Shown here piece after piece: positions 21,680 to 41,660 of a DNA stretch of 64,000 nucleotides. A program made the translations under genes and the position numbers. Each line of letters begins with the position of its first letter. The stretch's first letter is position 1. This DNA comes from Pelagomonas calceolata. Its lineage: Eukaryota. Where the stretch lies: positions 3,410,001 through 3,474,000 of the forward strand of contig CAKKNE010000006.1 of assembly GCA_918797485.1 (NCBI GenBank). Reading direction: 5' to 3'. The notes under the pieces were generated by a model that was given only the letters and a program-made list of their open reading frames with translations, was not told where the DNA came from and ran no database searches.

Positions 21680-22033
21680 CGTGGGGCTGCTATCGGGCTC
21701 GGGGATCTTGGAGAGAGTGCTGCTTGCGGCCAAATCTGGGGATCCAAAAAAACTAGTGAGTCAAAACACTAAGCCTGCACGCACGCGAGGAAGAATAGGA
21801 AGGTAGGCCACTCGACCAGTCGTCTCGTCCTAAAGGTGCCCCGTCCGTGGCAGTCAACGCGCGCACGGGACTGCGCCGCGCGAATTGCGGGACGCGAAGA
21901 AGACGAGGTCCGGAGGTACCCTCCGCGCCAATTTCGAGGGCTGCCCGCGACGCCGCCGCGGCCCTCCACACGCGCGCGCGGAAGATTTACGGTACGAGTC
22001 CGTTACATAACCAAGCCCCCCTTCTCTCTAAAC

Positions 22034-22922
22034 CTAGAAGTAGGGGAAGCCCTTGCCCGTGAGCACGGCCTGCGTCACGATGCCCGAGAACGCGAGCATG
22101 GCCAGCCGGCCGTTCTCGAGCTCCTTGAGCTGCATCTCCGGGTCGTTCGCGCCGCCGATCTGGAGCGGGTCGAAGCCGAAGTCTCCCGGCTGGCGCCCCG
22201 AGCCGTCGAGCATCTCCAAAATCGCGAGGTAGCCGATGCACTCGGCGACGGCGATCCAGATGCCGATCTGCGTCATCGCGCCCATGTCCACCGCCATGTC
22301 GTGCGCGTTGATCGACGCCACGTTGTGCATTTCCCCCGGGAGGCGGAACCCCAAGTCCGTCGCGACGAAGCCGACGACCGCGAGCATGCAGACGCGGCCG
22401 TGCTTGAGCTCGCTCTCGCGGAGCCACTCGACGGGCACCCAATCACTCAAACCGAGCGGGTCGAAGCCCTTGTCGCCGACCATGCCCTTGAGCTTCTGCG
22501 GCCGCGGCAGGAAAGGCATCGCGGGCGAGCGCCTGCGTTTTGGGAGGGGTTAGCGGCGCGCGCGTCGTGTGTGTTACGTGTGCCGCCTCTCTCGGTGGCA
22601 CAGCGACGGCGTGCGGGCGGGCCCGCCGACCGCCGACCGCCGTTCTCCGACATCGTGGAAGACGGCGGCCAGAGCCCGCTTTCCGCACGCTCCGCGTCCT
22701 TTGGAGCCTCAGTTAGGTGCGTCGGCATCGTTTGGACGGCCCCAAGGCTTCGCGGGGCCAGCGCGCGCGCGCGCTTTGCGAACCGGCTGCTAATGCTAAA
22801 TCGACGCTGTGGACGCACTCTACGCTGCTAACCTCCGCCGAAAGCTGCGTGGCGGGCCTGGCAGGCGCCACAGGCGCCATTAAGGCGCTTGCACCCGCCG
22901 CGAGGGCCAGGCAGCGCATCAT
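22034..22922 (-). CDS. Light-harvesting chlorophyll a/c-fucoxanthin protein, Lhcr-like (intron 22533-22818)
   Basis: Bipartite presequence; 'SPAMPFL', 'GDKGFDPLG', 'LRESELKHGRVCMLA', 'ELENGRLAMLA'. Confidence 0.93.
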
Positions 22923-23249
22923 ATTGGCCAAATTGCCTATGATCCTGATCAACCATAAAGCTTAGCGGCAGACACACACTAGAATCAAAAAAATTGATTT
23001 ATCTCTCCGCGCGCAAAGAGACCTCCCTTCGACACCCTGGCGCCCGCGCACTTCGCAGCAACACGCAGTCGGCCCTCAGAGAGATGCCTGCCCATCGTCT
23101 GTGAGAGCAAGCGTCCCGCGCGCCGTCCCGCAAGGCATTGCTGCGAAGCTGACCACACGGAGGCCCCTGCGAACTGCCGAGCCCAAGAGGGCAGCCGTTC
23201 GCGGGCTACGGGCAGGAGCACTGCGGTGGCCAAGCACAGTGGCCCCTAG

Positions 23250-23786
23250 ATGGAGTCAAAGAACGACGCCCACGAGCCAAACAGAGACACCAAGGACGAG
23301 CCCGCGCCACCGCTAGCGCCAACTTTAAAAATAGTAGCGAAGCAGTTCCTCGCGCGCCGGGCAGCCCTCGGCGAGGCAGCTTTGGACTGCGACGGCATCG
23401 AGTGCCTTTATGGAGACTTTGTGGAGGAGAACGCCGACGAGTTCGAGGGCTTCGACCCCTCGGACGGCTCGGGCAACGACCACGGCTTGAAAGCGCTACA
23501 CGAGGAGTTCCTGGCGCTGTTCACGAAAGACGTCGAGGGCGCCCTCGCGTCGTCAGACCTGACGCTCGAGGACTTCGTGAAAGACGTCGAGGAGGCGCGG
23601 CGCGACGGCCTGGAAGCGCGCTGGGACGCGCTCGAGGCGGCGACGGCCGTCTGGTTCTGCGAGGCCTGCTGGGCCGCGCTAGATCTAGCCCAGTTCGCCG
23701 AGACGATGCGAGAAGCTGCTCAAAGGCAACGACGAGTTTTAGACAGAAAGCGCGCCTTCCGGTTATTGCGGCGGGGCGCGAAATAA
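23250..23786 (+). CDS. BART/ARL2-binding-domain-like protein
   Basis: 'DFVEENADEF...LHEEFLALFTKDVEGAL...LTLEDF...LDLAQFAETM'. Confidence 0.65.
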   Translation: MESKNDAHEPNRDTKDEPAPPLAPTLKIVAKQFLARRAALGEAALDCDGIECLYGDFVEENADEFEGFDPSDGSGNDHGLKALHEEFLALFTKDVEGALASSDLTLEDFVKDVEEARRDGLEARWDALEAATAVWFCEACWAALDLAQFAETMREAAQRQRRVLDRKRAFRLLRRGAK

Positions 23787-23796
23787 CACAAATGTC

Positions 23797-25575
23797 TTAA
23801 ACAGCCCACTTTAGTAAAGCGTCGCGCCACGCTATTTCATCCCGTCGCACGCAGACGACGTTCGCCCAGCGCCTCACCTCGTAGGCCTCGGCAAAGCACC
23901 CGCCCGTCAATCTCCATAAACTCCCGTGCGCGCCCTGGAGGTAGCAGTCGAAATTCAATGAATCGAACTGCTCCGTGCGACCCTTGAGCGTCTCCTCGGC
24001 CCAGGCGCCGCGGAAATGGTACTCGAACTCGACGAGTCTTGCGTTTTTCACGGTCTCCATACCACCATCGAGCACGAGCGGGTCCTGGCCCTCCACATCG
24101 AGCGAGAGGTAGTCCACCTTGTCTTCCACAATACCATCTAACGTCTCGACTCGGACCTCCTCGAAGCGCGGCTCCTTCTCGAACCGTCCTTCAAATTGCC
24201 GGGCGTCGCACGTGCCTTCTGAGCAGACCTCGCCGACCTCCTCGCCGGCGGCCAAGGACGGGAACGTTGCAGAACCACGTGTACGGCCGAGGGCCATCTG
24301 TAAAAGGCGCACGGTCGCAGGACCCTTCATCCAAATCTCATCCTTCTCGACGAAGCTATGATCACGAAGGCAGCCCGCCAGCAACCCGACGTTCGCCCCC
24401 AGCGGCTCGACGAGGTCCACAACAATCGTATCAGTAATGTCATCATCATACGCCTCCTCGTCCTCGAGGCAGTCGCGGCACCAGCCGCAGGCCAATCTAG
24501 CGTTGAGCCTTCGCAGAGCCACGCCCCACGTTGCTGGAGAGACCTCGAGGGACGGCGCGAGTGCTGATAGGAGCGACGCGAGGCCGTAGCCCTTGTTCGC
24601 GCCGACATACACGGCGCGGAATCTGCCATGATGCGCGCGCAGCGCGTCGCTCAGCCACGGTCTCGAGGGGCAGCCTAATAACGCGGCCTTGTCCCAGGCG
24701 TCTTCATTACCTTCAAGCGATATTCCAAGGGACGCGGTGAACAATGATGAATCAGCACAGGCGAACGAAGGCACTACGTCACGGTAAACATCAACAGACC
24801 AGGCCACAATGGAGTCCGCGTCGACGAAGCGTCTTCCAGAAGCCGTGCCGACCGACGGCCCGCCATAGAGCTCGACGCGGTGTTGATCAAAAGTGTCGAA
24901 GTCGAAGGCGGCCGGCGATGGCGGCGGTGATGATGATCGCGGCGCCCGTCTTATGAGGACGGCGAGGCCGCCGTCGGCCGCCGCGACGGCGACGTCCAGC
25001 GTCGGCCGTCGTAGTTTTAGGACATCTTTCCAGACGCCGCCGTATCCCTCTTCCGTGCACGGCAGTGCGCCCCTTATGATGATCGCGGCGCGCAGCGGTA
25101 GATTTGAAAACGCTGCGTCGACCGCTTCTCTTAGCTCACATGTGATGCCGTCGATCAGCGCGGCGCCCGCGTTTTTATCATCAACTCCATGGCAGTCGGC
25201 GCGCGTCCACGTGGCGAAGCCGCGCGCCCTGGCTACAGCTAAAGCCACCTCCTCACTTCTAGCCCGCGCGCGGCGCAGCGTCCGCCCGCCGTCACAAACA
25301 AAACCCCCGACGGCGTCGGCCGCGGCCCGGATGCGTGTTTCCTCACTAGCGCCCGCGAGCTCCGCTATTTGAGCGCCCGGGCTCCTTGCGATGAGGTTCT
25401 CGAGACCGACTACCACCAACTCCTGTGCGGAGGCGTTGAGCCGCGGCTCCTCCGCAAGCGCGTGCCGCGCGCAGTCCAGAAGGCTGCCCCGGTCGCATTG
25501 GAGCTCCGCGTCGGCGAAGGGCAGCGTGAGGGCCGAGCTGCTGCTGACCAGCAAAATGAAGACAAGCGTCCGCAT
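23797..25575 (-). CDS. FkbM-family methyltransferase-like secreted protein
   Basis: Signal peptide; 'YVGANKGY', 'VEP', 'YLSLDVEGQDPLVLDG', 'EFEYH'. Confidence 0.75.
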   Translation of the reverse strand: MRTLVFILLVSSSSALTLPFADAELQCDRGSLLDCARHALAEEPRLNASAQELVVVGLENLIARSPGAQIAELAGASEETRIRAAADAVGGFVCDGGRTLRRARARSEEVALAVARARGFATWTRADCHGVDDKNAGAALIDGITCELREAVDAAFSNLPLRAAIIIRGALPCTEEGYGGVWKDVLKLRRPTLDVAVAAADGGLAVLIRRAPRSSSPPPSPAAFDFDTFDQHRVELYGGPSVGTASGRRFVDADSIVAWSVDVYRDVVPSFACADSSLFTASLGISLEGNEDAWDKAALLGCPSRPWLSDALRAHHGRFRAVYVGANKGYGLASLLSALAPSLEVSPATWGVALRRLNARLACGWCRDCLEDEEAYDDDITDTIVVDLVEPLGANVGLLAGCLRDHSFVEKDEIWMKGPATVRLLQMALGRTRGSATFPSLAAGEEVGEVCSEGTCDARQFEGRFEKEPRFEEVRVETLDGIVEDKVDYLSLDVEGQDPLVLDGGMETVKNARLVEFEYHFRGAWAEETLKGRTEQFDSLNFDCYLQGAHGSLWRLTGGCFAEAYEVRRWANVVCVRRDEIAWRDALLKWAV

Positions 25576-25977
25576 CGGTGCTCGCGTCGACTTTTGGGGC
25601 ATCGATGCGTCGCGGGCTAGTGCCTGGAGGCTGCCCGCCGGCGCTGGGCTGCAAATGCGCAGCAGAGCGCCGGGCGCTGGCTAGCGGCCGTAAGACACTA
25701 GCCTAGCAATCAGGACGCTGTGATCCTGGGGGCTACCCACGGGCCGTAGACCGGACCCGGGCGTCGCCCACGGAGCCTCAAAAGAGCCCCCGTGGCCGCA
25801 GCGGACGTCGCGCGCGCGGGCAGCCGCCTAGGATCTCGGGGCAGCCCAGGAGGGTCCCACCACTTCACGCGGCACTGACGCCGCCGCCGCGCCCCACGGA
25901 CACCAAGGCAGGCCAGGACAGGAGGCAAGCCCCGACGCCGTCGACGCGACACCACCGACACGCACTGAGACACCACC

Positions 25978-26592
25978 ATGGCGCTCGCATCAGCAAAGTC
26001 GAGCGCCCTCGAGGACAACAACAAGGCCGTGGCCACGGGCATGAAGTGGTCCGTGGAAGCCCGCGCCGAGATCCCGCAGGCGATGAGGGATGAGATCGAG
26101 GCCGAGATGGCGACGAAACGCGTTTTGAGGGGCGGCACCGAAGAAGATCGAATGCGCGCTAGAGCAGAAACGGCCTCCCTCAAGAAAAAGGTCATGGACC
26201 TGCGGACGCCCAAGAACGTCAAAATGCCCGAACCGAATGACATTGTACTCATTGGTGAGTGCCCCTGGAAGTTTCCTAGAGATACTGAAAGGATTGACAA
26301 GTACCGGTACCGCATCCTGAAGGTCGACCCGAAGTACGACGAGATTAACCCGAAAACGGGCGCTCCCTTCGACCCTGATGAGTTGAAGGAGGCGATCTTG
26401 AAATCCAAAAACCCGCGGAAGAACGAGCGCTTGTATTTACATGACGCGCTGTGTCCGCCGCCGCCGCCTACTCCTCCTCCCTCAACACCACCTAGGATGG
26501 TGTCGTCGTTGGCCTTGAGGCCCGCGGATCTGAGAAGGCAGGAGGAGCAGAAACGGCGTGAATTGGCTATATCTGCGACGTTCAATAAGTAG
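25978..26592 (+). CDS. Hypothetical protein
   Basis: 204-aa ORF with ATG in a CACCATG context and protein-like composition. Confidence 0.55.
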   Translation: MALASAKSSALEDNNKAVATGMKWSVEARAEIPQAMRDEIEAEMATKRVLRGGTEEDRMRARAETASLKKKVMDLRTPKNVKMPEPNDIVLIGECPWKFPRDTERIDKYRYRILKVDPKYDEINPKTGAPFDPDELKEAILKSKNPRKNERLYLHDALCPPPPPTPPPSTPPRMVSSLALRPADLRRQEEQKRRELAISATFNK

Positions 26593-26730
26593 TCTTTGTG
26601 TGACTTGCTTTCGCTCGCCCGTCCCGCCCCCGGCCCTCATGCGCCGTCGCCCCAGCTTGTCTATACAAAACACACATTAGTCTTGGCAGCACGGTCATTC
26701 GCTGGCGCCGCGCCCCGCCGGCGTGGACGA

Positions 26731-27498
26731 TCACGCCTCATCCTCCTCCTCGTCCTCGTCGTCCGTCCGGAAGAAGTTGTACGACAGCGCGATGTTCGAC
26801 ACCCTCTTGAGCGAGGGATCTTCCAGAAACTTCGGGTCGATGACAAACAGCACGGGCATGTCGACCTCCTCCCCCGCTTGCAACCGCTGCTCGTCAAAGC
26901 AAAAACACTGGATCTTCACGAAGTAGGGCCCGGCCTGGGGCGGCATGACGTTGTACGTGGCCACGCCCGTGATCGCCTTGTCGCTGTGATTCGTCGTCAC
27001 GTAGAAGGCCAATGCCGATTCCCCGGGCACGACCCTCACGTCGCGTTGTGCTGGAACGAACGACCAAGGCAGGGAATCACTTACAGAACCATCAAAGGTC
27101 ACCCTGATGACTCTTGAAGTTTCCGCCGGCTTTAGTAGATCTAAAGTGTCCTTCTCGGCCCTTTTCGTCGTGCCTCCGAACCCAGTCGCCTGGCAGAAGA
27201 CCTTGTAGAGCGGTACGGACGCGTAGCATAATGCCAACGTGGAGATGGCGAGGGCGCTTCCGTACAGGAGCATGCGCTGGTTCTTTTGTTTGAGTTCCTC
27301 CGCGGCGGCCGCTCGCGCTCGCTCGCGCGCGGACGAAAATGCGCGCATTTGTTCTAGTCGTCGTCGGCGCGCGTGGTTTGTGATGCTGTTGCATGCGTGC
27401 CGTCGCGTCGATAGCGTCGCGCAGTGTGTTGTAAGTGGTGGCCGCCGCTGCAGCCTTGTACGGTGTCGTAGCGCGCGCAGGGGTGCGTGGCGCAGCAT
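26731..27498 (-). CDS. COX11: Cytochrome c oxidase assembly protein COX11 (5' structure uncertain)
   Basis: 'YASVPLYKVFCQATGFGG', 'PGESALAFY', 'YFVKIQCFCFDEQRL', 'VDMPVLF'. Confidence 0.95.
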   Translation of the reverse strand: MLRHAPLRALRHRTRLQRRPPLTTHCATLSTRRHACNSITNHARRRRLEQMRAFSSARERARAAAAEELKQKNQRMLLYGSALAISTLALCYASVPLYKVFCQATGFGGTTKRAEKDTLDLLKPAETSRVIRVTFDGSVSDSLPWSFVPAQRDVRVVPGESALAFYVTTNHSDKAITGVATYNVMPPQAGPYFVKIQCFCFDEQRLQAGEEVDMPVLFVIDPKFLEDPSLKRVSNIALSYNFFRTDDEDEEEDEA

Positions 27499-27723
27499 TG
27501 CGCCTTGTTGGTGTGCTATTGGTCGAATGATGCGACGTTTGAAGCTACGGCTATGCCGTTTCGCGGCGCCACGGGCGCGCCAGCGCAGGGCCAAGGAGAG
27601 CCTGCAGGCAGAGCAGCAGCCTGAAATGCTCAAGCTCTGTACCTAGCCCGTCTCGCGCTACCAAAGCTGTGTTGCGAGTAACAGACACGTACTGCGAGGG
27701 CTGCTCCACAGCACTGCTGGCCA

Positions 27724-28152
27724 ATGCGTCTCCTCGCACCACTCACTTTGTGTGCAGCAGTGCGTGCTCTGGCACCGATAACTAGCAACGCGCAGACAAA
27801 ATTGCGGCCGCGGCACGCCCTCGGCAGTCGAAGGTATCTCAGCTCGCTGCAGACGACGCATGGCGCATATCTTTCGCCAGCGCACCGCGGCGGCCCGGGA
27901 CGGCGCGGTCGAGGCGTCCTGCGGTCGAGCCCCGACGACGTCGACGACGAGGTCGTTTCCTCGGATGCCGACTTCGGCGGCGCAGTCATAAATGCGGTCA
28001 CCGCCGTCTTGGGCGTCGCGGTAGCAATATCGACGGTGTGCAACCTCGCGGGCTACGGATTTATGCAGACGGATGAAGGTCTCTACTTCGGGACGATCCA
28101 GCAGACGCGGATGCGCTACCAGCTCGACCAGGAGGCGGGGCGGGCGAGGTAG
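27724..28152 (+). CDS. Small membrane protein with a signal/transit-like leader
   Basis: 'MRLLAPLTLCAAVRALAP' leader; one TM ending 'NLAGYGF'. Confidence 0.45.
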   Translation: MRLLAPLTLCAAVRALAPITSNAQTKLRPRHALGSRRYLSSLQTTHGAYLSPAHRGGPGRRGRGVLRSSPDDVDDEVVSSDADFGGAVINAVTAVLGVAVAISTVCNLAGYGFMQTDEGLYFGTIQQTRMRYQLDQEAGRAR

Positions 28153-28402
28153 TCCATGCTCGCGCGGTCGGGCTATCTTGATTCTTGTGACAACGCCCGT
28201 CGACGCGCCGCCGCGCCTAGTACCCGTGTGTAGTCCGTTCCTTCGAAAGCGCGAACAGAGTAAGTGCGCGCGTTGACGCCGTCGACGCGCCCCACCATAC
28301 CATATAAATGCCGGTGTGTTAAGCGTATCGAAAGGGGAGGGGGGAACACCAGCTCTCCACAGTGTCGCGCGGGGTCGGCGGGCCGCGCTCCTATCTCAAA
28401 GT

Positions 28403-31400
28403 CTAGACGATGCCCTCGATGCGGTCCTCGACCTCCTGGTAGAGCTCCTGCAGTCTCTCCACGTTCTCCTCGTCCGTGTCCCAGTAGCCGCGGCCGTTCG
28501 CTTCCAAGAAGGTCGTCACCATATCCCTAAAGGCGTTGGGGTTCGTCTCGAGCAACCGCTTCTGCATGGCCTCGTCCTTGATGAACGTGTCGTTCGCGTC
28601 CTCGTAAACGAAGTTGTCGACCTCGCCGGCCGTCGCGCTCCAGCCCATCGTGTTGCGCAGGCGCTTCGTGATCTCGCGCGTGCCCTCGTAGCCCGACGCG
28701 AGCATACCCTCGTAGAATTTCGGGTTCAGGAGCTTCGTGCGCGCGTCGAGCCGCACCGTCTCCGACAGCGACCGCACCTGCGCATTGGCAGTGGTGGTGT
28801 CGGCCATCATCGACGAGGGCTTCTTGCCGTCCTTGCGCAGGCCCTCGACGACCTTGGTCGGGTCGGAGTCGTAGTAGTGCGACACGTCGCTGATGGAGAT
28901 CTCGCTCGAGTCCAAGTTCTGGAACGTGACGTCCACCGTCGACAGGGCGGCCTTGAACATGTCCGTGGACTGCGTCATCATGCCCGGCTTGTCGGCGTTG
29001 AACGCGAAGCCCTTGCGGCCGACGAACTGCTCCTGGAGCTGGTTCTCGGACTCCCAGCCGCCGTTCTCGATGGCCAAGCCCACATTTGCGGAGTAGGAAC
29101 CCGCGGCGTTCGAGAAGACGCGCGTCGCGGCCTCGCGCACGGACATGCCGAGCTCCTTGGCCTGCTCCTTGGCGTGCTTCCTGACATAATTCTGGTCGTC
29201 GGGCTCGTCGGCCTCCGCCGCGAGTTTGACGGCGCGATCCAACAAATTCATCTGGTTGATGAACAGGTCGCGGAAGACGCCCGAGCACGAGACGACGACG
29301 TCGATGCGCGGTCTTCCCAACTCCTCGAGCGGGATGAGCTCGAGCTTGTTCACGCGGCCGAGCGCGTCGGGCACCGGGCGGACACCGACCAAACCCAAGA
29401 CCTGGGCCAGCGACTCGCCGTAGGTCTTGATGTTGTCCGTGCCCCAGAGCGTGAACGCTACCGACTCGGGCAGCTCGCCGTTGTCCTTTTCTAACCTTTC
29501 CAGGAGCTTCTCGACGACGCGGTTCGCGCATTCCACGGCCGCGGTCGTCGGAATGGACTGGGGGTCGAGCGCGTGCATGTTCTTGCCCGTGGGCAGCACG
29601 CCCGGGTTGCGGATGGGGTCGCCGCCCGGCCCCGGCTCGATGTACTGGCCGTCGAGCGCGTCGACGAGCGCACCCAACTCGTTGTCCGCGACGACCTGGC
29701 GCAGGCAGAACTCGAGGTACTCGAACAAGGGTTCCAGCATCTTGTCCTCCGACGCCTTCTGGAAGCCCGCCGACGCGAGGGCCTTGCGGTAGGGCGCCTG
29801 GCCGAACATGCCGCCGAGAGCCTTCTCCATCACATTTTGAACCTCCTTGACGCGGCCCTGGCTGTCGGTGGACTCGTCGACGAGCGCGCGCACGGCGGCG
29901 CGCGTGCCCTGCGTGATCTTCTGGAGGAGCTCGACGTCCTGCAAGACGCCCTCGTTGGCATTCCTGTAAATCTCCTCGAGCTTGCGGCCCTCGGCGTTCG
30001 CGAGGATGCGAGGCAGCCCGAGGATCTCGTCCTCGGGCCTGTCGATCTCCGCGATGGAGACGAGCGTCGCGATGGCCTCCTCGGCCGTCGGCGGGACACC
30101 GACCGTGTGCAGGCCCATGGGCAGCAACCGCGACTCGATTTCCATGAGCCGCTGGTAGACCATGCCGACGATCGTGTCCCTCCGCTCGAGGTCGACCTCC
30201 TTGGAGTCGAACTCGACGTCGGGCAAATTCTTGACATCTTTATCGAGGTTGCAGGAGTAGGCGGCGGCGATGATGGAGTTGACGATGGACGGGCCGCGGG
30301 CCTCGTTCTCGCGGAGGCCCTGGTACGACGAGACGAGCTCCGACAGCTCCTTGAGGCCCTTGTAGAGGCCGGCGTTCTCGGCCGGCGGCGTCAAGTAGGA
30401 GATGGTCGCGGCATACGAGCGGCGCTTCGCGATCGTGGCCTCGGACGGGTTATTAGCAGCATAATAGTACAGGTTCGGGATCGTGCCGGCTAACCGGTCG
30501 GGGTAGCACTCGCCGGACATGCCGACCTGCTTGCCGGGCATGAACTCGAGGGAGCCGTGGGTCCCGAAGTGCAACACGGCGTCGGCGTCGAAAACGGACT
30601 CGAGGTACGTGTAGTAGGCCGCGAAGCCGTGGTGCGGCGACGCCGACTTGGAGAAGAGCAACCGCATGGGGTCGCCCTCGTAGCCGAAGGACGGCTGGAC
30701 GCCGATGAACACGTTGCCGAATTTCGCGCCGAAGACGAGGAGGTTCTGGCCGTCCGAGTTGAGGTGGCCCGGCGGCGGGCCCCAGTTCTCGTGGAGGTCG
30801 TCCTGGTAGGGGCACAATCTCTCATACTCCTCCATGGTCATCTTGTGGACGACGTTGAGCGTCGGCGAGTCGAACTTGGCCTCCTTGTCGTTGAGCACCA
30901 TGTCCATGAGGTCCTCGGCCTCCATCTGGTTCGGGTCGACGTCCCCGAGGTCGTAGCCGCGGCCCTTGAGCTCCTTCGCCACCGCGAGGATCGAGCCGAA
31001 CACATCTAAGTAAGCAGCAGTACCCACATTGCCCTTGTCGGGCGGGAACGAGAAGATCGTGATGGCCAGCTTCTTGTCCTTGTTCTCCTTGCGCTTGAGC
31101 GAGCCCCACTTGAGGGCGCGCTGCGCGAGCGTCGAGATGCGGTCGTCGAGCGGCACGGACTTGCCCGTCGCGCCCTCGCGGCCGGCGTAGATGATGGGCT
31201 CGATGGCGCCGTCGAGCTCGGGCAGCGAGACCTGGAGGGCGACCTGGACCGGGTGTAAACCAAGTTCAGAAGCCTCCCACTCCTGGAACGACTGGAACAC
31301 TAAAGGTACGGCGCAGAGGTACGGCACGCCCAGCGACTTGAGCGTGTCGACGGCCTTCGGGTGGTCCTGCGAAGCCGGGCCACCGACCAAGGCGAAACCA

Positions 31401-33066
31401 GTAAGATTGATCACGGAGTCGACCGCGACGCCGCCCTGGCGGAAGAAGTACTCCTTGACCGGGCCCGAGAAGTCGAGGCCGCCGGAGTAGATGCAGACGA
31501 CCTTCGCGCCGCGCGCCTCGAGCTCGGAGATGAGCGAGACGTAGTGGCCCGCGTCGCCCGTGTTGATGTGCGACTTCTGCAATACGACGCCCACGACCGG
31601 AGCGTCCTCCGCCAGACCCGCGGCGGGCGCGTGCTCCGTCTCGTACCACTGGAAGTACTCTTCCGCCGTCTGGTAGACCTCCGGGCCGAGCGGGTGCCAG
31701 ATGCCTTTATCGGGCAACAACACAGGTTCCGCAATCAAGCCCTCCTGGTCGAGCGAGGCCATGTCGGCCTTCTCGACGACGGCCGGCACGTAGGTCGTAG
31801 CTAACGAGAGAAGCATCGACTGCAAGTTCTCGGGCGACCCGCCGAGCCAGTACTGGAACGACATCATGAAGCTCTTCGCGTCCTTGGCCTTGTCGCCCGG
31901 CAGGTACTTGAGCACCTTGGGCAGCGTGCGGAGCAATTTCAACATGGCCTCCTCGAACGAAGAACCGTCGTCGGCCTTCTTCTTCTTCATGAACTCACTG
32001 ACGACGCTCTTCGACTGGCCGAGCGAGGCCATGGTAAACCCACCGACCTTGTTGAGGCGCATGACCTCGGGCATGGACGGGAAGATGAGGACGGCGTCCA
32101 AGCGGTCGCGCTCGGCCTCTACCACTTCTTTCACTTGTTCGGCGAGCTCCTGGACGAAGATCAACGAACCAATAAACACGTTCGCCTCCTCGACGTCCTT
32201 CTTGAAGGCCGCGGCGTTCTTCTCGTCGCGCAGCTCCTCGAGCAAGTAGCCGACGCACTCGCAGGCGACGCCCGAGTTCTCGTTCTCGTTGATGGCCTTG
32301 ACCGCGGCGCTCATGGAGCTCTGGTACTGCGACTCGAGGACGACGTAGACGACCTTGAGCGGGGCGCGCGCGCCGCTCGGGTCGGCCTTGGCGGCCTGGT
32401 ACCTGTGTTTTGGTCGAGGGGTGAGATACTGTTGGTGTCGATGGCTTTGTGTGTCGTTGGCGCCTCGGCGGCGTCGTGGGACCGTGCGACGGCGTCGACG
32501 GCGTCGCGGCGTGGAAGCGTGCGGCCCGCGGCGGTTTCGCCCCGCCGCGGCGACGGCGCAAGTCTTCATGGCGAGGCCAACGAAGCGCGCCGACGCAGGC
32601 GACGCGTCGGCGCCTTCACATGATCACATGTGTGTGGCGCGCGCGCGCCGACGTTGCGTTGAATTGGAGATCTTTTGCTCTCGCCAGCTAAGCGGCGGAA
32701 GACGGCAGAAGATGTGGTGAGCGGTGCGCCGCGCGCCGCCGAGGCGGCGCGCGGCGCCGCGGTCGACGCCTTCGACGCTTCCGCGCAGCGCTGGGGCCGG
32801 TGCGCGCTTTTAACCTCAGGATATCTTCGCTCTCGATATCGGACGCCGGAAACGAACAGCTCCGTGCCGATGCGGCGGTCCTCCGGCGAGCTAGACGTAA
32901 ACATGCCGCCGCCGCTCGACAGCGACACGCCGCTCTCCTCCGCGAGAGCGCTGGACATGGCCACGGCCGGCGCTTTCACGACCCGGGGCGTCTTGACCGG
33001 CAGCGGCGCGCGCATGCCGAGAAACGCCGAGGCGCTTGCCAGCACGCATGCTGACAGCATCTTCAT
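28403..33066 (-). CDS. chlH: Magnesium chelatase subunit H, plastid-targeted (intron 32403-32857)
   Basis: 'ASASAFLG' presequence; '[13 protein letters not shown]', '[16 protein letters not shown]', '[15 protein letters not shown]', '[11 protein letters not shown]'; a phase-2 GT-AG intron joins the leader exon. Confidence 0.98.
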
Positions 33067-33575
33067 CGTGATGCAGCGACCGCTGTGCCTTAGCACCTTG
33101 CGATCGCGGGCCAGCTCGATGCCAATACGAGCTATCTAGTCGCAACTTCGACAAGGAGGGCCTGACGACCCCCCCCTCTCCGGCGCAATGACCCTTGGCG
33201 CGTCCCTCCCCCACTCGCGTCCGAACCAGAACGACCTCTCCGACGCCTCCCCGAGCAGTTGTCGCCTGCGCTTGCTGTGTGTGTTGCAAAATGGGGCTGC
33301 GGTTCTGAACCGCTCGATGCGACGACGTTCCGACGGCTCTAAGACAGAATCCCGCGGCTAAGGACCATTCGCGGCCGGCGCGGGGGCTCATGCACTCTGC
33401 CAGCCTCCTGGTAAAAAGAGTGGACGCCAGCGCAGCGCTCGCGTGACCAACGCCCGCGCAGCTGCGCCCTCGCAACTCTACCTTCATCACTGCGCACGCC
33501 GACGAGCGCTACGCCGCCGCCGCGCGCGCCACGTCGAGCACACAGCACTGCAGAGCAGAGGTTACGCCAAAATAA

Positions 33576-35274
33576 ATGGCCTCGTACCGCTTCCGACGAC
33601 GAATAGCGACGCTCTTCCTCGGCGCCGCAGCGGCCCTAGCGCCGGCGCGACCGCCGCGCGCCGCCATTTCACGAAGCGCCGCCGTCGCCGAGCTCCCCGT
33701 ACAACAACCAGCAAAAACGGACGAGGGCCCCATCGCCGTCCTCTTGCTGAACTTGGGCGGCCCCGAAACGAGTGACGACGTCGAGCCCTTCCTCTACAAC
33801 CTCTTCGCGGACCCCGACATTATTAGATTGCCCCCTGCTCTAGCCGGTTTACAGACGGCCATCGCGTGGCTCGTGGCAAAAAGGCGAGCCCCGAAATCGC
33901 GGGCGGCCTACGATTCGATCGGCGGCGGCTCGCCCATTCTGGAATATACCACTCAACAAGCTAGGTTACTTGAGAACAGACTCGGCCCGGACTACAAGTG
34001 CTACGTCGCGATGCGCTACTGGCACCCGTTCACCGACGACGCGGTCCAAAAGGCCGTGGCCGACGGCTGCACGTCGGCCGTCGTGCTGCCCCTGTACCCG
34101 CACTTTTCGATCTCTACTACCGGTACGGAGCGGCGTCCTTTTTCCGCCTTCGATGCAACGGCCGTACGACCGCGGGAGGGACGCTGGGCCTCTGTAGATC
34201 CCAACGGGTCGCGTCGATGGCGTACGGCGTCAGCCGGTTCGCGCCCGGCCCGCCGTTGCGGGTTCTTCGATGTCCGGTGGGGCGTGTCGTGACCTGGAGC
34301 CCCCATCGACGTCGCGCCGACGGCGTTGGGGCGCCGGCGCGCCGTCGCCGCGACCACCGCGCGCGTCGCATCGATAGAGAGACCTTCACACAATCACGCC
34401 GCGCCGATGCCTCGACGCCGTCGCCGCGAGGCGCGTCGGAGCGAGTCGTACCGCGTCGACGCCGTCGAGACGCAACCGCGCCGCAGGCTCCTCCCTAAGA
34501 GCATTACTAGCGGAGATGCAGGCCAAAGCGCCCGCACTCATGCAGCGCCACACGGTCGTCCCGAGCTGGCAGGGGAGCCCCGGCTACGTCGACGTCGTTG
34601 CGAAACTCGTCGCCGAGCAGCTCGACTCCCTCGACGACATTTCAGACACGACCACGGTCCTCTTCAGCGCCCACGGCGTCCCCGTCTCCTACGTGGAAGA
34701 AGCGGGAGACCCCTACAAGCGCCACATCGAAGAAACCGTAGCCAAGGTCACGGAAAACGTGAAAAGACGGCGACCAGCGACGACGGCGACCTTCGAGCTC
34801 TCCTTCCAATCGAGGGTCGGTCCCGTGAAGTGGCTCGAGCCCTACACGGATACTAAATTAGAAGAAATCGGTCAGAGAGGTTGTGACTCCGTGGTGGTCG
34901 TGCCGATCTCGTTCGTGAGCGAACACATCGAGACGCTGGAAGAGCTGGATATTGAATACAGGGAAGTCGCGGAAGAAGCGGGCGTCAAACACTGGCGGCG
35001 CGTGCCGGCTCTGAATCTGGACGAGGACTTCATCAGCGAGCTCGCGACGCAAGTGCGAGGCGCTCTCGCGAAACCCGTCGTGAACAGCGTCGACGCTTGT
35101 ATTTTGAATTCGTTTGATCTCACGGAGACGCCCGTCGGCATGCTTCCCGGTGTGGATGAACCGGTCGAGTTCGTGAACGGGCGGACGATGACGGTGGCCA
35201 TTACGCTCACAATCCTCTTCGAGCTTCTTGCCGATAGAGCGTCGGTCGTCGGGCTGCTGGGGCTGCCGGTATAA
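33576..35274 (+). CDS. hemH: Plastid ferrochelatase with a C-terminal CAB-like segment (intron 34123-34486)
   Basis: 'LLNLGGPET', 'IGGGSPI', 'AMRYWHPFT', spliced '[13 protein letters not shown]', 'FSAHGVP', '[10 protein letters not shown]', '[11 protein letters not shown]'. Confidence 0.96.
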
Positions 35275-35501
35275 GTTATAGTTATGAGTCGCGGCGATGG
35301 CGTGCTGGAGAGGTAGTGTTCCGCTCGGCGGCCTCGAGCGGCGGGTATGCTGTCATGAAAGACACGGCACGCGCCCGTCGCCGATGAATCGGGGGACTCC
35401 GCCCACTAGTCCTAGCACCGTAACAATAGACCCCGGCGGACCCGGTCAGCTCGGCCAGGAGTCCGACAAGCCCGTGCTAGGGATACAACACAAGGACATT
35501 A

Positions 35502-36479
35502 CTACGACCTAAAAACAGCACATCGCGCCCAGCTGTGCTTCCGGTAGACGTCGTTCGCGAGCTCGCCGCTCTGCTTCCAATTTGGGGCATGAAACGGGTT
35601 CCAGACCGCGCCCGAGACGAGCACGGCGCCAGCTTTCTTCAGGGCCCGCGCGTCTCTCGAAAGCTCGAGACGAGTAGGGGAGAAGAAGACCACAGTGGCG
35701 CGCCGCCGCCGCGCCGCGTCGAGGGCCGCGGCCCAGTCGTAGGAGCTGTCCGAGAGGCCCATGTTGAAGCCCACGAGGAGCGCGCCCGCGCAGAGGTCAG
35801 CGGCCTCGTATGACTTTTGTAGTGCCGCGACGACGACGCCGCGGTCGGCCCGCGCCCCGGTCTCCTCGGGCACCTGGGGCCCGACGAGCGTGACGATGAT
35901 TCCTTTGTCCCTCGGCAGCACTCGCTCGAGCGCGCGGGCCCACCACTGCGCCGGCGCCGCGGCCTCCGGCGGCGCGGCCCCAACCAAGTGGATGGCCCCC
36001 GAGGCCTCCACGCACCTCGCCGCCGCCGGGAACGCCGCCACGGCGTACGCGACGGAGAGCGGGAACGACAGCGCCAGCGCGGCAGCGGGATCGCGCCAGT
36101 TTGTCAGCCTCATCGGTAGGTACTCGATCGATGATAAATCAGCGCGGGTAAAGTCGAAGCTCTCCTCGACCGCGAGCGCGTCGAGCGACTCCTCTGGTAG
36201 CTGCTTGAGTATGTCGCAGGACGCGGCGTGGGCCCGCGCGTCGCGGCCGCGGCAGCGCGTCGAGCAGTACGACACGCGCCCGCAAGCCTCGCAGGAGAGC
36301 ATCGGCAGGCGCAGGCACACCGCGCAGCAGTCGTGGCCGGGCCGCAGCGATTTGTTTTGGTGTTGTCTCCGCCTGCCGGCGGCGTAGTCCCAGGCTCTGA
36401 GGCCGTCCTCTAAGTTGGTTTTGCTGGGCGGGCGGTCGCGTGGCTTGTGGCGTCGTCGGCGGCGTGCTGCACAGACCAT
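35502..36479 (-). CDS. MYND zinc-finger protein with an MSS51-like C-terminal region
   Basis: 'CAVC...CEACGRVSYCSTRC...AHAASC'; 'IHLVGA', 'LVGP', 'GFNMGL', 'NPF'. Confidence 0.75.
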   Translation of the reverse strand: MVCAARRRRRHKPRDRPPSKTNLEDGLRAWDYAAGRRRQHQNKSLRPGHDCCAVCLRLPMLSCEACGRVSYCSTRCRGRDARAHAASCDILKQLPEESLDALAVEESFDFTRADLSSIEYLPMRLTNWRDPAAALALSFPLSVAYAVAAFPAAARCVEASGAIHLVGAAPPEAAAPAQWWARALERVLPRDKGIIVTLVGPQVPEETGARADRGVVVAALQKSYEAADLCAGALLVGFNMGLSDSSYDWAAALDAARRRRATVVFFSPTRLELSRDARALKKAGAVLVSGAVWNPFHAPNWKQSGELANDVYRKHSWARCAVFRS

Positions 36480-37120
36480 TTTTGCTGCAGTGCTTGCTTT
36501 TTGATGTGTCGCAGCCTTTCCTTGCAGCGATTTTTGCTGTAATTCGCTTCGCAGCAATGTCACAGAAGGTATACAGCCCCGACGCTTCAGGAGTAGCACA
36601 TGCGCGTCGTATGCGCGCGGTACATCGTCGATTTTGTGAGAGCGGAGCCGCCACTACCAAAATCGGGCGCGGCTCGGCCTATGTGTCCGAGGGAAGACTG
36701 CTCCGAGGAGTCGTAGCATCAGGATTCCGAACGGCGTTTTGTTCGCCACAACCTGAGCGAGATCGAGGCAACAAAAACACTGCGCTGACGACCGTGAGCT
36801 GTACCACCGCGGCGCCCTAACCAAAACTGCTGGCCGTGGGGTGTTTACGACGTGACCGAGGTGCTGGCCCAGGGAGGCACGTCGAATTTTGGGCGCTTGC
36901 GTGGCTGTGAAGCCGAGTAGAGGCCCAAAGCGAGTCGGGCCAAATTGGCCCCGCGGACGGCCCCTCGACGCTCTGTAGCCACCTCGAGGACTGCCCGACG
37001 ACGCGCCGTCGCCGCGCCGTGGTTTGTAGCCGTAAAAAAGCTACAGAGACGGAACGCTCGACCGATTGCAGTCGGGCGAAGCGCTGAGTCCCGCCCCCCC
37101 CCGCAGGTCGTGAAGCAGAG

Positions 37121-37759
37121 ATGCCGTCGCGACGGACGGCGGTGCTGGCCGCCCTCGCGGCGACGGCCTCGGCCTTCGTCGCGCCGAGCCTCCAGGCGCC
37201 CAAGGTCGCGCCGAGGCACGCCCTCGTCGAGGAGGGCGCCTTCGTGCCCGACATGGAGCGCCGGAACATCATGAATTTAATTCTGGTCTTCGGCGGCGCT
37301 TTACCTGCCGTAGGTGGATTAGCTATCCCGTACCTCCTCTTTTTCATCCCGCGCGGCGGCGGCGGCGGCGGCGGCGGCCTGCCCGCCCTGACGAAGGCCG
37401 GCGACCAGGTGACGTTCAAGAGCTGGCTCGACTCGCACCAGGTCGGGAGCAGAGAGCTCGTCCAGGGCCTCAAGGGCGACGCGACCTACCTGATTGTCGA
37501 CGACAACAAGCAGATCCGCGACTACGGCATCAACGCCGTCTGCACGCACCTGGGCTGCGTCGTGCCGTGGAACAAGGCGGCGAACAAGTACATGTGCCCC
37601 TGCCACGGCTCGCAGTACGACGAGACGGGCAAGGTCGTCCGCGGGCCGGCGCCGCTGTCGCTCGCGCTCGCGCACATCACGGACAACGCGGGCGTCGTCA
37701 CGTTCACGCCGTGGACGGAGACGGACTTCCGCACGGGGCTGAACCCGTGGTGGAAGTAG
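37121..37759 (+). CDS. petC: Cytochrome b6f Rieske Fe-S subunit, plastid-targeted
   Basis: 'ASAFVAP'; '[11 protein letters not shown]'; '[10 protein letters not shown]', 'CPCHGSQY', 'GPAPLSLAL', 'WTETDFRTG'. Confidence 0.98.
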
Positions 37760-38227
37760 ATTTCCTCCCCCCTGTCTAACAAAAACTCGCGTTTATTTTG
37801 TGTCTCGTCGACGGCGTGCGGGTGGCCGTCGTGTCGATGGCTTCGCGTCGATGGCTTTCGGGTGGCCGTGGCAGTGCCCGGCGCACATCGCACCGCTCCG
37901 GACGTCCCGAGACGACGGAGCACTGGCACGACCCCCGGGCGCGTCCCCTCCGGGTAGGGCGCGGCGGCCCCCGATGCGCCCCCGGTGCGGACCTGAGATT
38001 CCGGCGTCCGGCCTGCTCCCCCCTCGCCGCCGTCGCCTCCGAGCTAACACCCGGGGCGACGGCGTACGAGGGCCGGGGGCGGGGCGGGCGTGCGGTCACG
38101 CAGACCCCGCGGCGGCCGGGTGGCTAGGTAGCCTAGCTCTAGGCAAAGCAAAGCGGGAAAAATAGCAGGCGCCGCGCCGGCCGGGTGGCTAGGCAATCTA
38201 AGGAACGCAAAAATCACACATCCGCCA

Positions 38228-40255
38228 CTACTTAAGCATCTGCCACAGCGACCGCCGCTCATAGTCGTCCCGGCGCAACGGCCGCCCCCGCCGCAACGCC
38301 GCGGACAGGGACCGCGCGGGCAGCGTGTCCAAGGGAGGGAGCTTCTTTGTTGTATAAGGCGTCCGCGTGTAGAAGAACTCTTCCTCTTCATCAGAATCGG
38401 AAGAGTCATAGTAGCGACTTTTGGAAGGAGACGCCCGCTCCAGGGCCCGGACGCGCGCTTCTAACATCTCAACCTTGGACCGCGCGGCCGTCGCGATCTT
38501 GGCCCAGTCCGGCTCCGGCGAGAGCGGCGGCAATTTTTGTGGAGGCGTGACGGGCCGCGGCGTTTGGACCGGCGCCGGCGGCTCGTAGGCGCACGCCGCC
38601 TCATGTTTTTCGACGTCCCCAAACGAACCGGTGAAGCCGCAGCCTCTTTCACAGGCGTACTCCTCCTCTGACGACTCCACAGAGACGGGAGGCGCCGCCG
38701 CGACCCTCTGTAATACCTCCTGTTCTTCTGGAGAGAAGGCGACGAGGTGCACTCTGTCCAAACCCTCGAAACACGCGTCGCGAAGGGCCTCGACCGCTAT
38801 CATCAGGACGTCGTCCAGTGACCGGCTCCCTCGAAAGACGCCCGCACTCAGCAACGAAAAGGCGACCGTAGAACAGTCCTGGTCCCGCGCTAATCGCATC
38901 GCCTCCCCATAAGCGCTCCGCAGTAGCGCGTCGCCCTTCTTCAGATCCACTTGTCGGTAATCGGGCCCGACGGCGTGAATGACACAAGCGCAGCGCAGGG
39001 ACCCGAAGGAACCCGACGTGAGGACGGCGTCTCCAGTATGGCAGCGCTTGTCGTCGCTCACAGGTAAGGCCTGCCGCGCCTCCGCTAGTGAAGCCCCGCC
39101 GGCTCTCGTGATGGCGCCGTCGGCGCCACTCCCGCCCAGACATCGCTCGTTCGCCGCGTTCACGATCGCGTCGACGTGAGCGTCCACCACGCTTCCAGAA
39201 GACACAACTAACTCGCCGTGCGTCAACGCATGCCGCTCGATCTCGACGAGGCCATCTGTCAACCCATCGTCGGGCGGCGCCACCCGTTGTAAAGCCTCTC
39301 TACAAGCTTCTAGGGAGGGGTGGTCCCCGCCACAGATCGTTAATGCGTGCATGTACAATTCATAGGCCGTCTCTATTTCACTCAAAGCCTCGTGCGCGCT
39401 GCCCAACAGCAATATACTAGCGACGATCTCCGCGCCCTTCTCGCCGTGCCTGTCCATGTCCAACTCCAAGGCGCGGTCAAACACATGCGAAGCTTGTTCA
39501 TAATCTTGGAGGCCGAAGTACGCCCCTCCCACATTATGCAGCGTACTCGACTCGACCGTGTCTTCCCGTTCTTCGATAGCTAATGCTCTACTAAATAACG
39601 TCAACGCTCGTTCGTGGTCGCCGATCTCAGAATAGGCCACTCCACAGTTGTTGAGGGAGGCCACGAGGTCTGCGTGGGCGGGCCCGTACTCCCGCTCCTC
39701 GATGGCTAGGGCCCGTTCCAGGACCACCACCCTTTTAGCGTGTTCTCCTGTCGTAGCGTAGACCTGGCCCAGGTGCATGAGCGTGATCGCTAAATCGGCG
39801 TGGTCGCGCCCCAGTTCCCGTTCCTCAATCGCCAAAGCTCGCTCGAGCAACTGCTTCTTCCGCGCGTCGTCCCCCAATTCCCCATGCGCTAAGGCAAGTT
39901 CATACGCCGTCTGGGCGACAGCAGCGTCGTCCTCTGTGTAGTTGTCGAGGGCGCGTTCGAGCAGATCCCGCTTCGTCGCGTGGTCGCCCAAGTCGCCGTG
40001 CGCATTGCCCAACGAATGGAGGACTGCTGACGCTTCCAATGAATCGCGTCCATTATGTCGGATGGTGAGCTCCAAGGCGCGCTCGAGCGTGTCGACCGCG
40101 TCCCGATGCTCGCCTAGCGCCGCGTGCGTCTCGCCCAAGCTCTTGAGCGTCTCGGCGAGACGCGGGTCCGACCTCCCGAACTGGGTCTCCTCCATCCTTA
40201 GGGTCTTCGCGAACACATCTCTGTTTTTAGCAAGAGCATCGTCCCCGGTCGCCAT
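38228..40255 (-). CDS. TPR-repeat + Macro-domain protein
   Basis: Repeated 'LERALAIEERE.G.DH' TPRs; Macro motifs 'DAIVNAANERCLGGSGADGAI', 'VIHAVGP', 'AFSLLSAGVF'. Confidence 0.9.
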   Translation of the reverse strand: MATGDDALAKNRDVFAKTLRMEETQFGRSDPRLAETLKSLGETHAALGEHRDAVDTLERALELTIRHNGRDSLEASAVLHSLGNAHGDLGDHATKRDLLERALDNYTEDDAAVAQTAYELALAHGELGDDARKKQLLERALAIEERELGRDHADLAITLMHLGQVYATTGEHAKRVVVLERALAIEEREYGPAHADLVASLNNCGVAYSEIGDHERALTLFSRALAIEEREDTVESSTLHNVGGAYFGLQDYEQASHVFDRALELDMDRHGEKGAEIVASILLLGSAHEALSEIETAYELYMHALTICGGDHPSLEACREALQRVAPPDDGLTDGLVEIERHALTHGELVVSSGSVVDAHVDAIVNAANERCLGGSGADGAITRAGGASLAEARQALPVSDDKRCHTGDAVLTSGSFGSLRCACVIHAVGPDYRQVDLKKGDALLRSAYGEAMRLARDQDCSTVAFSLLSAGVFRGSRSLDDVLMIAVEALRDACFEGLDRVHLVAFSPEEQEVLQRVAAAPPVSVESSEEEYACERGCGFTGSFGDVEKHEAACAYEPPAPVQTPRPVTPPQKLPPLSPEPDWAKIATAARSKVEMLEARVRALERASPSKSRYYDSSDSDEEEEFFYTRTPYTTKKLPPLDTLPARSLSAALRRGRPLRRDDYERRSLWQMLK

Positions 40256-40724
40256 GGGGCTGCCCTTTCCTACGCAGCGGTGCTCCTTTACTTAAAGTCG
40301 CTTGCGCTGGGTCGTGTGTCGTTGCCCGAGCACCGGTGGCTGCGACGGTGCCGCGAGAGCGTCTCAGGCTGCAGCGCCGCAAGACGCGCTGTCCAGGGTG
40401 GCGGGTTTTTGGTGGAACCACCGCAGCCGTCGTCGAGGGAGAGGTCTGCGGCTACCGTCTATGGGGAATGCTGCGAAGGTGGGCGCTCGGACATCGAGCT
40501 GGCCCATCCTGCGCGTCTCTGGTGGCAAAGCGGCACTCCCGTCGGACGCGACCGAGGCACGGCGGGGAGCTCGCAACCACACGACTGCTGTGCGTTCCGA
40601 GGCAACTGAACCCAGCTGGAGTTCCAGCACGTAACTCTTCGGCCCACCTGAGCACAACCTGTGGGCTTGCCCGCCTGAGACGCCCGACGCCGCGGACGGG
40701 GGCGACCCAAAGAAGAAGGACACC

Positions 40725-41567
40725 ATGTCGACGGCCCGGACCGAGACGCGCACGAGCTCCTGGCGCACGCCTACTTTGAGAGGCCTCCGTCAGTCGCTCT
40801 CCGTCACGAGAAGGACAAAGCAGCCGGTCGAGGAGCCTCTACAACTGGACGCGGGCGGCCTGCGGAAAGCATTAGCAATTGGCAGCGACCTCATAGCATC
40901 GCCGACCGTGGACCACGTGCGCCAGCAGCGCGCCTGGGATTGCGGACTCGCGTGCGTCCTCATGGCGGCTCCGCACGCGCGACGACAAACCAAGTCGGAG
41001 GTGAAGTGGAATGACGTGGAGAAGGCCTGCGGCACGCGCTCCGTCTGGACCGTGGATTTGGCCTTTGCATTAAGGGCGTTGGGCTGTCGGGATTTTCTCT
41101 TTTTAACGAAGACGACGGGCTGCGATCCTTCCTACGCGCGGCTCGCGTTCTATCGGCGGGACCTCGGCGCTGATTCTACTAGAATCCAGTCGCTGTTTCG
41201 ACGGGCGCAGAACGGGGAGGTTTCCGTGAAAAGGGCAGTCGCGACAAGGGACGGGCTGCTCGAGGTCCTGCGGACGGGGCGGGTCCTGGCGATCGCGCTC
41301 GTCGATTTGCGGCTGCTGCACGCGCGCGCGGCGCGGACGTCGCTTCTACCTAGGTCGTACACGGGCCACTACGTGTTGCTGGTGGGCGCGGAGGGCGACC
41401 GCGTGCGCTACCGGGACCCGGCGGCGGACCGCGCGGAGCTGGTGATCGACGCGGATGATCTGCATCGGGCGCGCGTCGCGCACGGCACGGACGAGGATTT
41501 GATCCTCGTCGCGGTGGATACCTCGGAGACGGCGGAGGCGCTGCCGCCGATCCGGGGCGTAAGGTAG
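40725..41567 (+). CDS. GUCD1-like (C39-peptidase-fold) protein
   Basis: 'HVRQQRAWDCGLACVLM', 'SVWTVDLA', 'YTGHYVLL', 'YRDPA', 'GTDEDLI'. Confidence 0.88.
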   Translation: MSTARTETRTSSWRTPTLRGLRQSLSVTRRTKQPVEEPLQLDAGGLRKALAIGSDLIASPTVDHVRQQRAWDCGLACVLMAAPHARRQTKSEVKWNDVEKACGTRSVWTVDLAFALRALGCRDFLFLTKTTGCDPSYARLAFYRRDLGADSTRIQSLFRRAQNGEVSVKRAVATRDGLLEVLRTGRVLAIALVDLRLLHARAARTSLLPRSYTGHYVLLVGAEGDRVRYRDPAADRAELVIDADDLHRARVAHGTDEDLILVAVDTSETAEALPPIRGVR

Positions 41568-41660
41568 TCTTCTTGTTTATATTAGTCGCGGAGGCTGGGA
41601 ATGAATTGGGGGGTGAATTGCGCCATGGAGCGAGCACCGTCGTGGCGGCGGCGATGCGAG

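Follow-up and report, generated by a model that had tools for sequence, protein, structure and literature searches.

Head-to-head Mg-chelatase H and ferrochelatase genes of Pelagomonas calceolata: a conserved gene pair with probably two largely independent promoters

Why do the genes of two chelatases that compete for protoporphyrin IX stand back to back in an algal nucleus, and does one switch govern both? The question is raised by a stretch of 64,000 nucleotides (nt) of Pelagomonas calceolata (contig CAKKNE010000006.1 of assembly GCA_918797485.1, forward-strand positions 3,410,001 to 3,474,000; hereafter the window), in which chlH, the gene for Mg-chelatase subunit H, and hemH, the gene for ferrochelatase, are transcribed divergently. 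A first-pass annotation made from the letters alone placed their starts at 33066 (minus strand) and 33576 (plus strand), about 510 bp apart, and proposed a shared bidirectional promoter that may tie the branch to light or iron status. The divergence is confirmed, with 509 nt between the ATGs and both genes expressed. We consider it moderately probable that the genes have two promoters, largely independent of each other and set in a conserved block of gene order, and not one shared switch.

The features of the gene pair, in window coordinates, are these:

28403..32402, minus strand: chlH exon 2, with the DUF3479 and CobN/Mg-chelatase domains (Pfam, NCBIfam, reads)
32403..32857, minus strand: chlH intron, 455 nt, GT..AG (spliced sense reads, 24-69 per run, in 4/4 runs)
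32858..33066, minus strand: coding part of chlH exon 1, with a signal-plus-transit-like presequence (sequence and reads)
33067..33119, minus strand: chlH 5' untranslated region (UTR) (read-end pile-up at 33116 and 33119)
33120..33430, no strand: spacer of about 310-320 nt with hardly any transcription (scattered reads only, depth 0-2)
33355..33366, plus strand: 12-nt motif CGGCTWMGGAYC, a candidate hemH promoter element, kept in 5/5 loci
33430..33575, plus strand: hemH 5' UTR, its start inferred from coverage
33527..33534, plus strand: CGCCACGT, with an ACGT core, inside the hemH 5' UTR and kept in 5/5 loci
33576..34122, plus strand: hemH exon 1 with presequence (Pfam, NCBIfam, reads)
34123..34486, plus strand: hemH intron, 364 nt, GT..AG (spliced reads, 13-36 per run)
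34487..35274, plus strand: hemH exon 2 (Pfam, NCBIfam, reads; poly(A) at 35289)

The chlH product contains the Pfam domains CobN-Mg_chel and DUF3479 in a profile search, and it scores 1976 bits against the curated ChlH/BchH profile PRK12493 (cut-off 1300) and 1668 against TIGR02025 (cut-off 829), with all scores against the NCBIfam CobN models far below cut-off; by these profiles it is Mg-chelatase subunit H. Its frame runs from the ATG at 33066 to a stop at 28403 on the minus strand, and stranded poly(A) reads place polyadenylation near 28305-28311. The hemH frame extends from the ATG at 33576 to a stop at 35274, with a Pfam Ferrochelatase match in both exons and TIGR00109 above cut-off in each, and by the same kind of match it is a ferrochelatase with an intact spliced frame. 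Both genes are intact, spliced and expressed, and their proteins match P. calceolata gene models. The chlH presequence carries an ASAF-type motif that we take to be of the heterokont plastid-targeting type, and the form of both presequences suggests plastid targeting of this kind for the two products. In Supplementary Data 5 of Coale et al. (2026, PMC13284251) hemH is modelled at 444 aa and chlH at 1432 aa, against 1402 aa for the read-supported chlH; the difference lies at window positions 32780-32857, the published model having a later splice donor than the one used by the reads. A second gene annotated as chlH, Pca_5p26480, is probably a paralogue, making the linked copy one of two, and has no ferrochelatase row nearby in the part of the annotation examined.

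Four stranded poly(A) RNA-seq runs give the 5' ends, as read ends and coverage rather than as mapped caps, and in 4/4 runs the ends of the two RNAs lie about 320 nt apart. Coverage on the hemH side is about 2 in the bin 33340-33443 and 13-23 in the next, and these bin depths point to a transcript start at about 33430-33445. The two divergent 5' ends are thus less than 1 kb apart with both genes expressed, and both promoters likely lie inside the spacer at 33120..33430.

The P. calceolata genome, of 32.4 Mb, carries 16,667 genes (PMC9481584). Among that many genes two named ones would be adjacent by chance with a probability of about 1e-4, and any two of 20-30 pathway genes with one of 2-5%, so that one genome alone says little; what exceeds chance is the conservation of the pair in relatives. 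A metagenome scan with a pelagophyte-type ferrochelatase pattern gave 16 loci, nine of which were dropped as low-GC, bacterial-type ferrochelatases of about 40% identity without a chlH match. Four of the seven algal loci (L002, L006, L009 and L014) reach the chlH side, the remaining three (L001, L010 and L016) ending before it, and chlH and hemH are head-to-head in 4/4 with ATG gaps of 408-535 nt. Two Aureococcus assemblies have the proteins under consecutive accessions (KAH8046366/367 and KAH8093482/483) on contigs of the same size, which speaks to adjacency only, and in two further Aureococcus assemblies they fall on same-size contigs (304,783 and 966,663 b) with accessions 16 and 72 apart, too distant in number to show adjacency. 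The accessions KAJ1449188/189 of Plocamiomonas psychrophila CCMP2097 are likewise consecutive on a contig of 86,987 b (again adjacency only); a second chlH copy of this alga lies on another contig without a known ferrochelatase partner. Plocamiomonas is assigned to an order of its own (PMC11375080). A tree joins 11 pelagophyte ferrochelatases in one clade (support 100/100) on a long branch of 1.09 changes per column, with Plocamiomonas branching first at weak support (83/54); a Chrysophaeum ferrochelatase is not among the matches listed.

The linkage that the first-pass annotation proposed to look for in other pelagophytes is therefore kept across two orders, and it was not seen in the ochrophytes compared outside them: in 4/4 other ochrophytes (Triparma strigata, Scytosiphon promiscuus, Stephanocyclus and Mediolabrus) chlH and hemH lie on different contigs, a count to be read with the Stephanocyclus and Mediolabrus contigs being only 8-19 kb long and with paralogues that could confound all four. 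No hemH adjoins chlH at any of 80 cyanobacterial chlH loci (63 of them with at least 2 kb upstream), and one such locus has a ferrochelatase-like match of 25% identity about 6.8 kb away. Since the pairing occurs in pelagophytes and not in these outgroups or cyanobacteria, a single origin in the ancestor of the pelagophytes is probable.

Expression of the two genes can be followed in 120 transcriptomes taken across iron and light treatments and times of day, analysed with a signed, weighted network of gene co-expression (WGCNA) and in 12 contrasts (Coale et al. 2026, PMC13284251; here and below we draw on the part of its text and tables that was available). The yellow module, which is strongly diel, takes in chlH (gene 11.23), and the light- and iron-sensitive blue module takes in hemH (11.5). 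Differential expression of chlH is called in 9/12 contrasts: it is higher by day than by night in 4/4, higher in high than in low light in both night contrasts, up with added iron in low-light day, and up without iron in both night contrasts. Calls for hemH number 3/12, with none of the four day/night contrasts among them; it is higher in low than in high light in iron-poor day and iron-poor night, and up with added iron in high-light day. The sole contrast shared by the two, high against low light at night in low iron, has chlH up and hemH down, and 0/12 contrasts move both in the same direction. Mean log counts per million are 8.15 for chlH and 3.93 for hemH, and the proteomics rows available include chlH and lack hemH. 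Read depth in our four runs is 13-23-fold apart, in libraries that are 3'-biased; these four read sets, which differ in that bias, were left out of the judgement on co-expression. The positive co-expression that a bidirectional promoter would lead one to look for is thus not seen in the data available for chlH and hemH. The check on expression over diel and low-iron transcriptomes, for which the annotation named co- or anti-expression, largely fails, although an anti-phase control along the light axis may exist; of the proposed shared co-ordinating promoter the conserved linkage stands, and the co-ordination is not supported.

The spacer itself contains two conserved motifs. The 12-nt motif CGGCTWMGGAYC lies 221-230 nt upstream of the hemH ATG in 5/5 loci and 178-309 nt from the chlH ATG, and CGCCACGT lies 46-50 nt upstream of the hemH ATG in 5/5 loci; the distances to hemH are fixed for both, and the chlH side of the spacer varies by about 130 nt. 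Because the distance is fixed to hemH only, the motifs fit hemH-specific elements better than a shared centre, and from their placement they would appear to serve hemH. We take CGCCACGT to be G-box/ABRE-like, its ACGT core resembling bZIP sites; P. calceolata has eight aureochromes. When the window is compared with L014 or L002, fourfold-degenerate sites prove to be at saturation (0.40-0.46 identity), and the spacers align at about the level of shuffles. In a four-way test the number of shared spacer 7- and 8-mers was reached by 0/300 shuffles, and in a three-way test the shared 8-mers, CGCCACGT included, were only marginal (8/300 shuffles). The window shows no enrichment of CGCCACGT (9 copies, matched by 11/100 shuffles), and its weight comes from the fixed position and not from its frequency. 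The neighbouring spacer, between an MSS51-like gene and petC, has as many conserved words or more, so that motif conservation in a promoter is nothing special here. For the hemH 5' UTR a conserved RNA structure was considered and rejected, with a positive covariation term and many broken pairs.

On the chlH side, the presequence and adjoining spacer (32858-33430) of the window differ sharply from those of L009 and L006, as do those of L014 from L002; the N-termini differ in this way despite core proteins that are 97-99% identical. The spacer measures 408 nt in L002 and 515 nt in L014. The chlH intron of L014 (8590-8650) and of L002 (885-940) has additional ACGT-core words, of TGACGT type and CACGTG type, that are lost or absent in the window.

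The gene order around the pair has a strict pattern. Twelve consecutive expressed genes at 21700-41600 alternate strand, with 6 head-to-head and 5 tail-to-tail junctions: LHC, an unnamed open reading frame (ORF), an FkbM-domain gene, an unnamed ORF, cox11 and an unnamed ORF, followed by chlH, hemH, the MSS51-like gene, petC, a TPR/macro gene and a Guanylate_cyc_2 gene. Each upstream region in this run (6/6) separates a head-to-head pair; the gaps between the ATGs measure about 225-640 nt, so that 509 is typical. With twelve consecutive genes alternating and every local pair placed head-to-head at similar spacing, the annotation's remark that the arrangement is uncommon in the nucleus of a eukaryote does not hold for this genome. 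Strict alternation has a probability of about 5e-4 if orientations are independent, a value for a pattern chosen after the fact, and it may reflect a genome-wide orientation bias; the ORF list for the rest of the window lacks it. The two genes next beyond hemH are:

35502..36479, minus strand: MYND-finger/MSS51_C gene, tail-to-tail with hemH (Pfam)
37121..37759, plus strand: petC, for the cytochrome b6f Rieske protein, paired head-to-head with the MSS51-like gene (Pfam)

The sister lineage L014, with a ferrochelatase 79-89% identical by exon, has ten genes in the order of the window from the FkbM gene onwards. In L010, with a ferrochelatase 99-100% identical to that of Aureococcus, the MSS51-like gene again lies tail-to-tail behind hemH; this linkage is the only synteny control at Aureococcus depth, and it too is conserved. 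Other genes of the pathway (chlD, GUN4, PPOX, chlM, POR and CPOX) are scattered in the part of the P. calceolata annotation examined. A metabolic gene cluster would have at least three non-homologous adjacent genes of one pathway with co-regulated members; just chlH and hemH are present here, and they are not co-regulated.

Among these neighbours, petC has a long 5' UTR (36790-37107) in which introns are used alternatively (skips of 306 and 246 nt); immediately before the acceptor lies a stretch that is conserved in L014 and L002. A DUF285 (Mycoplasma-type repeat) membrane protein gene at 20192-21760 adjoins the LHC gene.

The different modules, the diel calls of 4/4 against 0/4, the absence of a contrast shared in one direction, the unequal mRNA levels and the fixed distance of the motifs to hemH speak for two promoters, which we think likely. 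So do the head-to-head default of this region, the scattering of the other pathway genes, the gene order kept in L014 and L010, and the next divergent pair as a control: the MSS51-like gene and petC are discordant in expression too (blue against yellow, diel 0/4 against 3/4). Each gene would have its own promoter inside a short common spacer of about 320 nt. The chlH gene would follow the daytime photosynthesis programme, as petC does, and hemH would run at a low level around the clock, adjusted by light level and iron; low light and iron favour its expression. The linkage probably persists for two reasons: gene order is in general stable locally, and any breakpoint inside a spacer of some 320 nt would damage one of the promoters, both of which are needed. 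Branch-point flux would be set by the separate programmes and, to go by work on plants, after translation.

Several observations weigh against two independent promoters. The pair survives to the deepest sampled split among pelagophyte ferrochelatases, that of Plocamiomonas (weakly supported, as given above), and the background control for synteny is one gene at Aureococcus depth, with none at the depth of Plocamiomonas. That precisely these two competing enzymes should have been paired by chance has a prior of about 1e-4 (2-5% for any two pathway genes). Thresholded tables of differential expression, combined with low hemH counts, could hide a weak correlation or anti-correlation, and both genes are induced by iron in daytime contrasts, though at different light levels. 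A preprint states that chlorophyll-pathway genes all peak in dim white light (10.64898/2026.09.29.755320), in a text whose available part does not show whether ferrochelatase is among them.

The alternative that survives best, although we think it unlikely, is a reciprocal branch-point switch, in which activation of chlH lowers hemH by promoter competition or through one factor acting oppositely on the two, and selection keeps a single short spacer that sets the chlorophyll-to-heme ratio with light and iron. The opposite signs in the one shared contrast favour it, and a signed network would put anti-correlated genes in different modules; however, hemH shows no mirror change between day and night (0/4, against 4/4 for chlH), and by day both genes rise with iron. 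The class-wide retention of the pair and the persistence of two motifs where fourfold-degenerate sites are saturated also speak for it, but the motifs track hemH only, and the neighbouring spacer holds conserved words in equal or greater number. In run X23 sparse hemH-sense reads continue into the 5' end of chlH, yet these upstream reads reach a depth of only 1-2. In its most specific form the class-wide 320-nt spacer would be a hard-wired chlorophyll/heme switch, acting through the ACGT-core (bZIP/aureochrome-type) site and the 12-nt element, a proposal we regard as distinctly unlikely; we are just as doubtful of its working parts, by which strong firing of chlH would suppress ferrochelatase and dim light or iron would tip the balance back.

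It also seems rather improbable that chlH and hemH belong to a loose bioenergetic neighbourhood (LHC, cox11, chlH, hemH, the MSS51-like gene and petC) selected as a shared chromatin domain. Yeast Mss51 is a heme-sensing activator of COX1, although MYND and MSS51_C domains are no proof of Mss51 function. The six genes do lie within 16 kb (22034-37795), but with unrelated genes between them that are equally conserved in L014. In the data of Coale et al. (PMC13284251) petC, two genes from chlH, resembles it in belonging to the yellow module and being day-induced in 3/4 contrasts, and the MSS51-like gene resembles hemH in its blue module, its induction by iron in high-light day and its diel calls of 0/4; against this, cox11 belongs to a third module and has no call of differential expression, and blue and yellow are common among the 30 neighbouring genes listed (7 and 4, respectively).

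A classical co-activating bidirectional promoter, raising both chelatases with plastid demand, is quite improbable, and for the iron, light and diel conditions it is largely refuted. The separation of the 5' ends by about 320 nt and the conserved linkage are as it would have them, and it can draw on the iron induction of each gene in a daytime contrast and on the preprint's statement of dim-light induction of pathway genes (10.64898/2026.09.29.755320), but the separate signed-network modules, the lack of any same-direction contrast among 12, the diel calls of 4/4 against 0/4 and the 13-23-fold difference in level all stand against it. Inheritance of the linkage from a cyanobacterial or endosymbiont operon, suggested by close cyanobacterial homologues of both proteins, is most improbable given the 0/80 cyanobacterial loci and the different contigs in the four other ochrophytes.

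The hemH gene has a history of its own within this setting. An intron at the same site is present in the window, L001, L006 and L009 and absent in L002, L010, L014 and L016 (n=8); its copies are 198-364 nt long, with the first 16 nt similar and the interiors very different, and it may be a recent gain, presumably of the introner type. The C-terminal tail (35130-35274) aligns to the CAB-like region of other algal ferrochelatases with a degenerate motif, and the CAB domain PF00504 is matched by the relative P0246 and not by window hemH exon 2, P0007, P0341 or P0242. A 14-nt G+C-rich word occurs in 11 copies in the window (9810, 34210, 35290, 49035, 49108, 52498, 55696, 55969, 57890, 57998 and 59755), including one in the hemH intron and one just past the hemH poly(A) site, and reads from elsewhere map to these copies. 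A read joint at 34224/35308 with opposite strands was considered as a rearrangement and rejected, as it reflects a short dispersed repeat.

No earlier report of chlH/hemH linkage was found in the literature searched, subscription papers and preprint supplements being outside its scope, and the linkage is unmentioned in the available parts of PMC5917014, PMC5115734 and bioRxiv 2024.10.30.620910. Conserved divergent gene pairs as such are already known; the class-wide adjacency of these two genes seems unreported. Pelagophytes are specialists of low light and low iron, and the spacer offers a small testable system in one of the most abundant low-iron algae of the ocean, with 320 nt, two footprinted motifs and public expression data from 120 samples. 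On present evidence its main lesson is one of caution: pathway genes that stand back to back in a compact algal genome are not necessarily co-regulated. Were the reciprocal switch true, it would be a genome-encoded control of chlorophyll and heme at the level of transcription, whereas accounts of this branch in plants describe mostly post-translational control.

Eukaryotic bidirectional promoters are defined, in the human-genome literature, by 5' ends less than 1 kb apart. The chlH/hemH pair resembles such head-to-head pairs in its 5' ends, in the expression of both genes and in its conserved order; it differs in lacking positive co-expression in the 120 transcriptomes as far as available, in having motifs anchored to one partner and in an arrangement that is the local default. 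Algal metabolic gene clusters, such as those for nitrate assimilation, also place genes of the same pathway next to one another, and the chlH/hemH pair shares with them its adjacency and its conservation, likewise within a compact algal genome; unlike those clusters the pair has two genes only, for competing and not sequential enzymes, without co-regulation and with the other pathway genes scattered. Bacterial photosynthesis gene clusters hold bchH, and the likeness is that a gene for a chelatase has others for tetrapyrrole synthesis or electron transport close by, but chlH and hemH are nuclear, spliced and separately polyadenylated, and cyanobacterial chlH is not beside hemH (80 loci). In plants the same two enzymes partition protoporphyrin IX, with heme needed day and night and chlorophyll synthesis following the light cycle, and the checkpoints described in the part of that account available are post-translational (PMC9992760). 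The diel chlH and non-diel hemH of Pelagomonas fit this need for heme by day and by night; unlike in that account, which in the available part does not mention genomic linkage (PMC9992760), the two genes are neighbours throughout the pelagophytes sampled.

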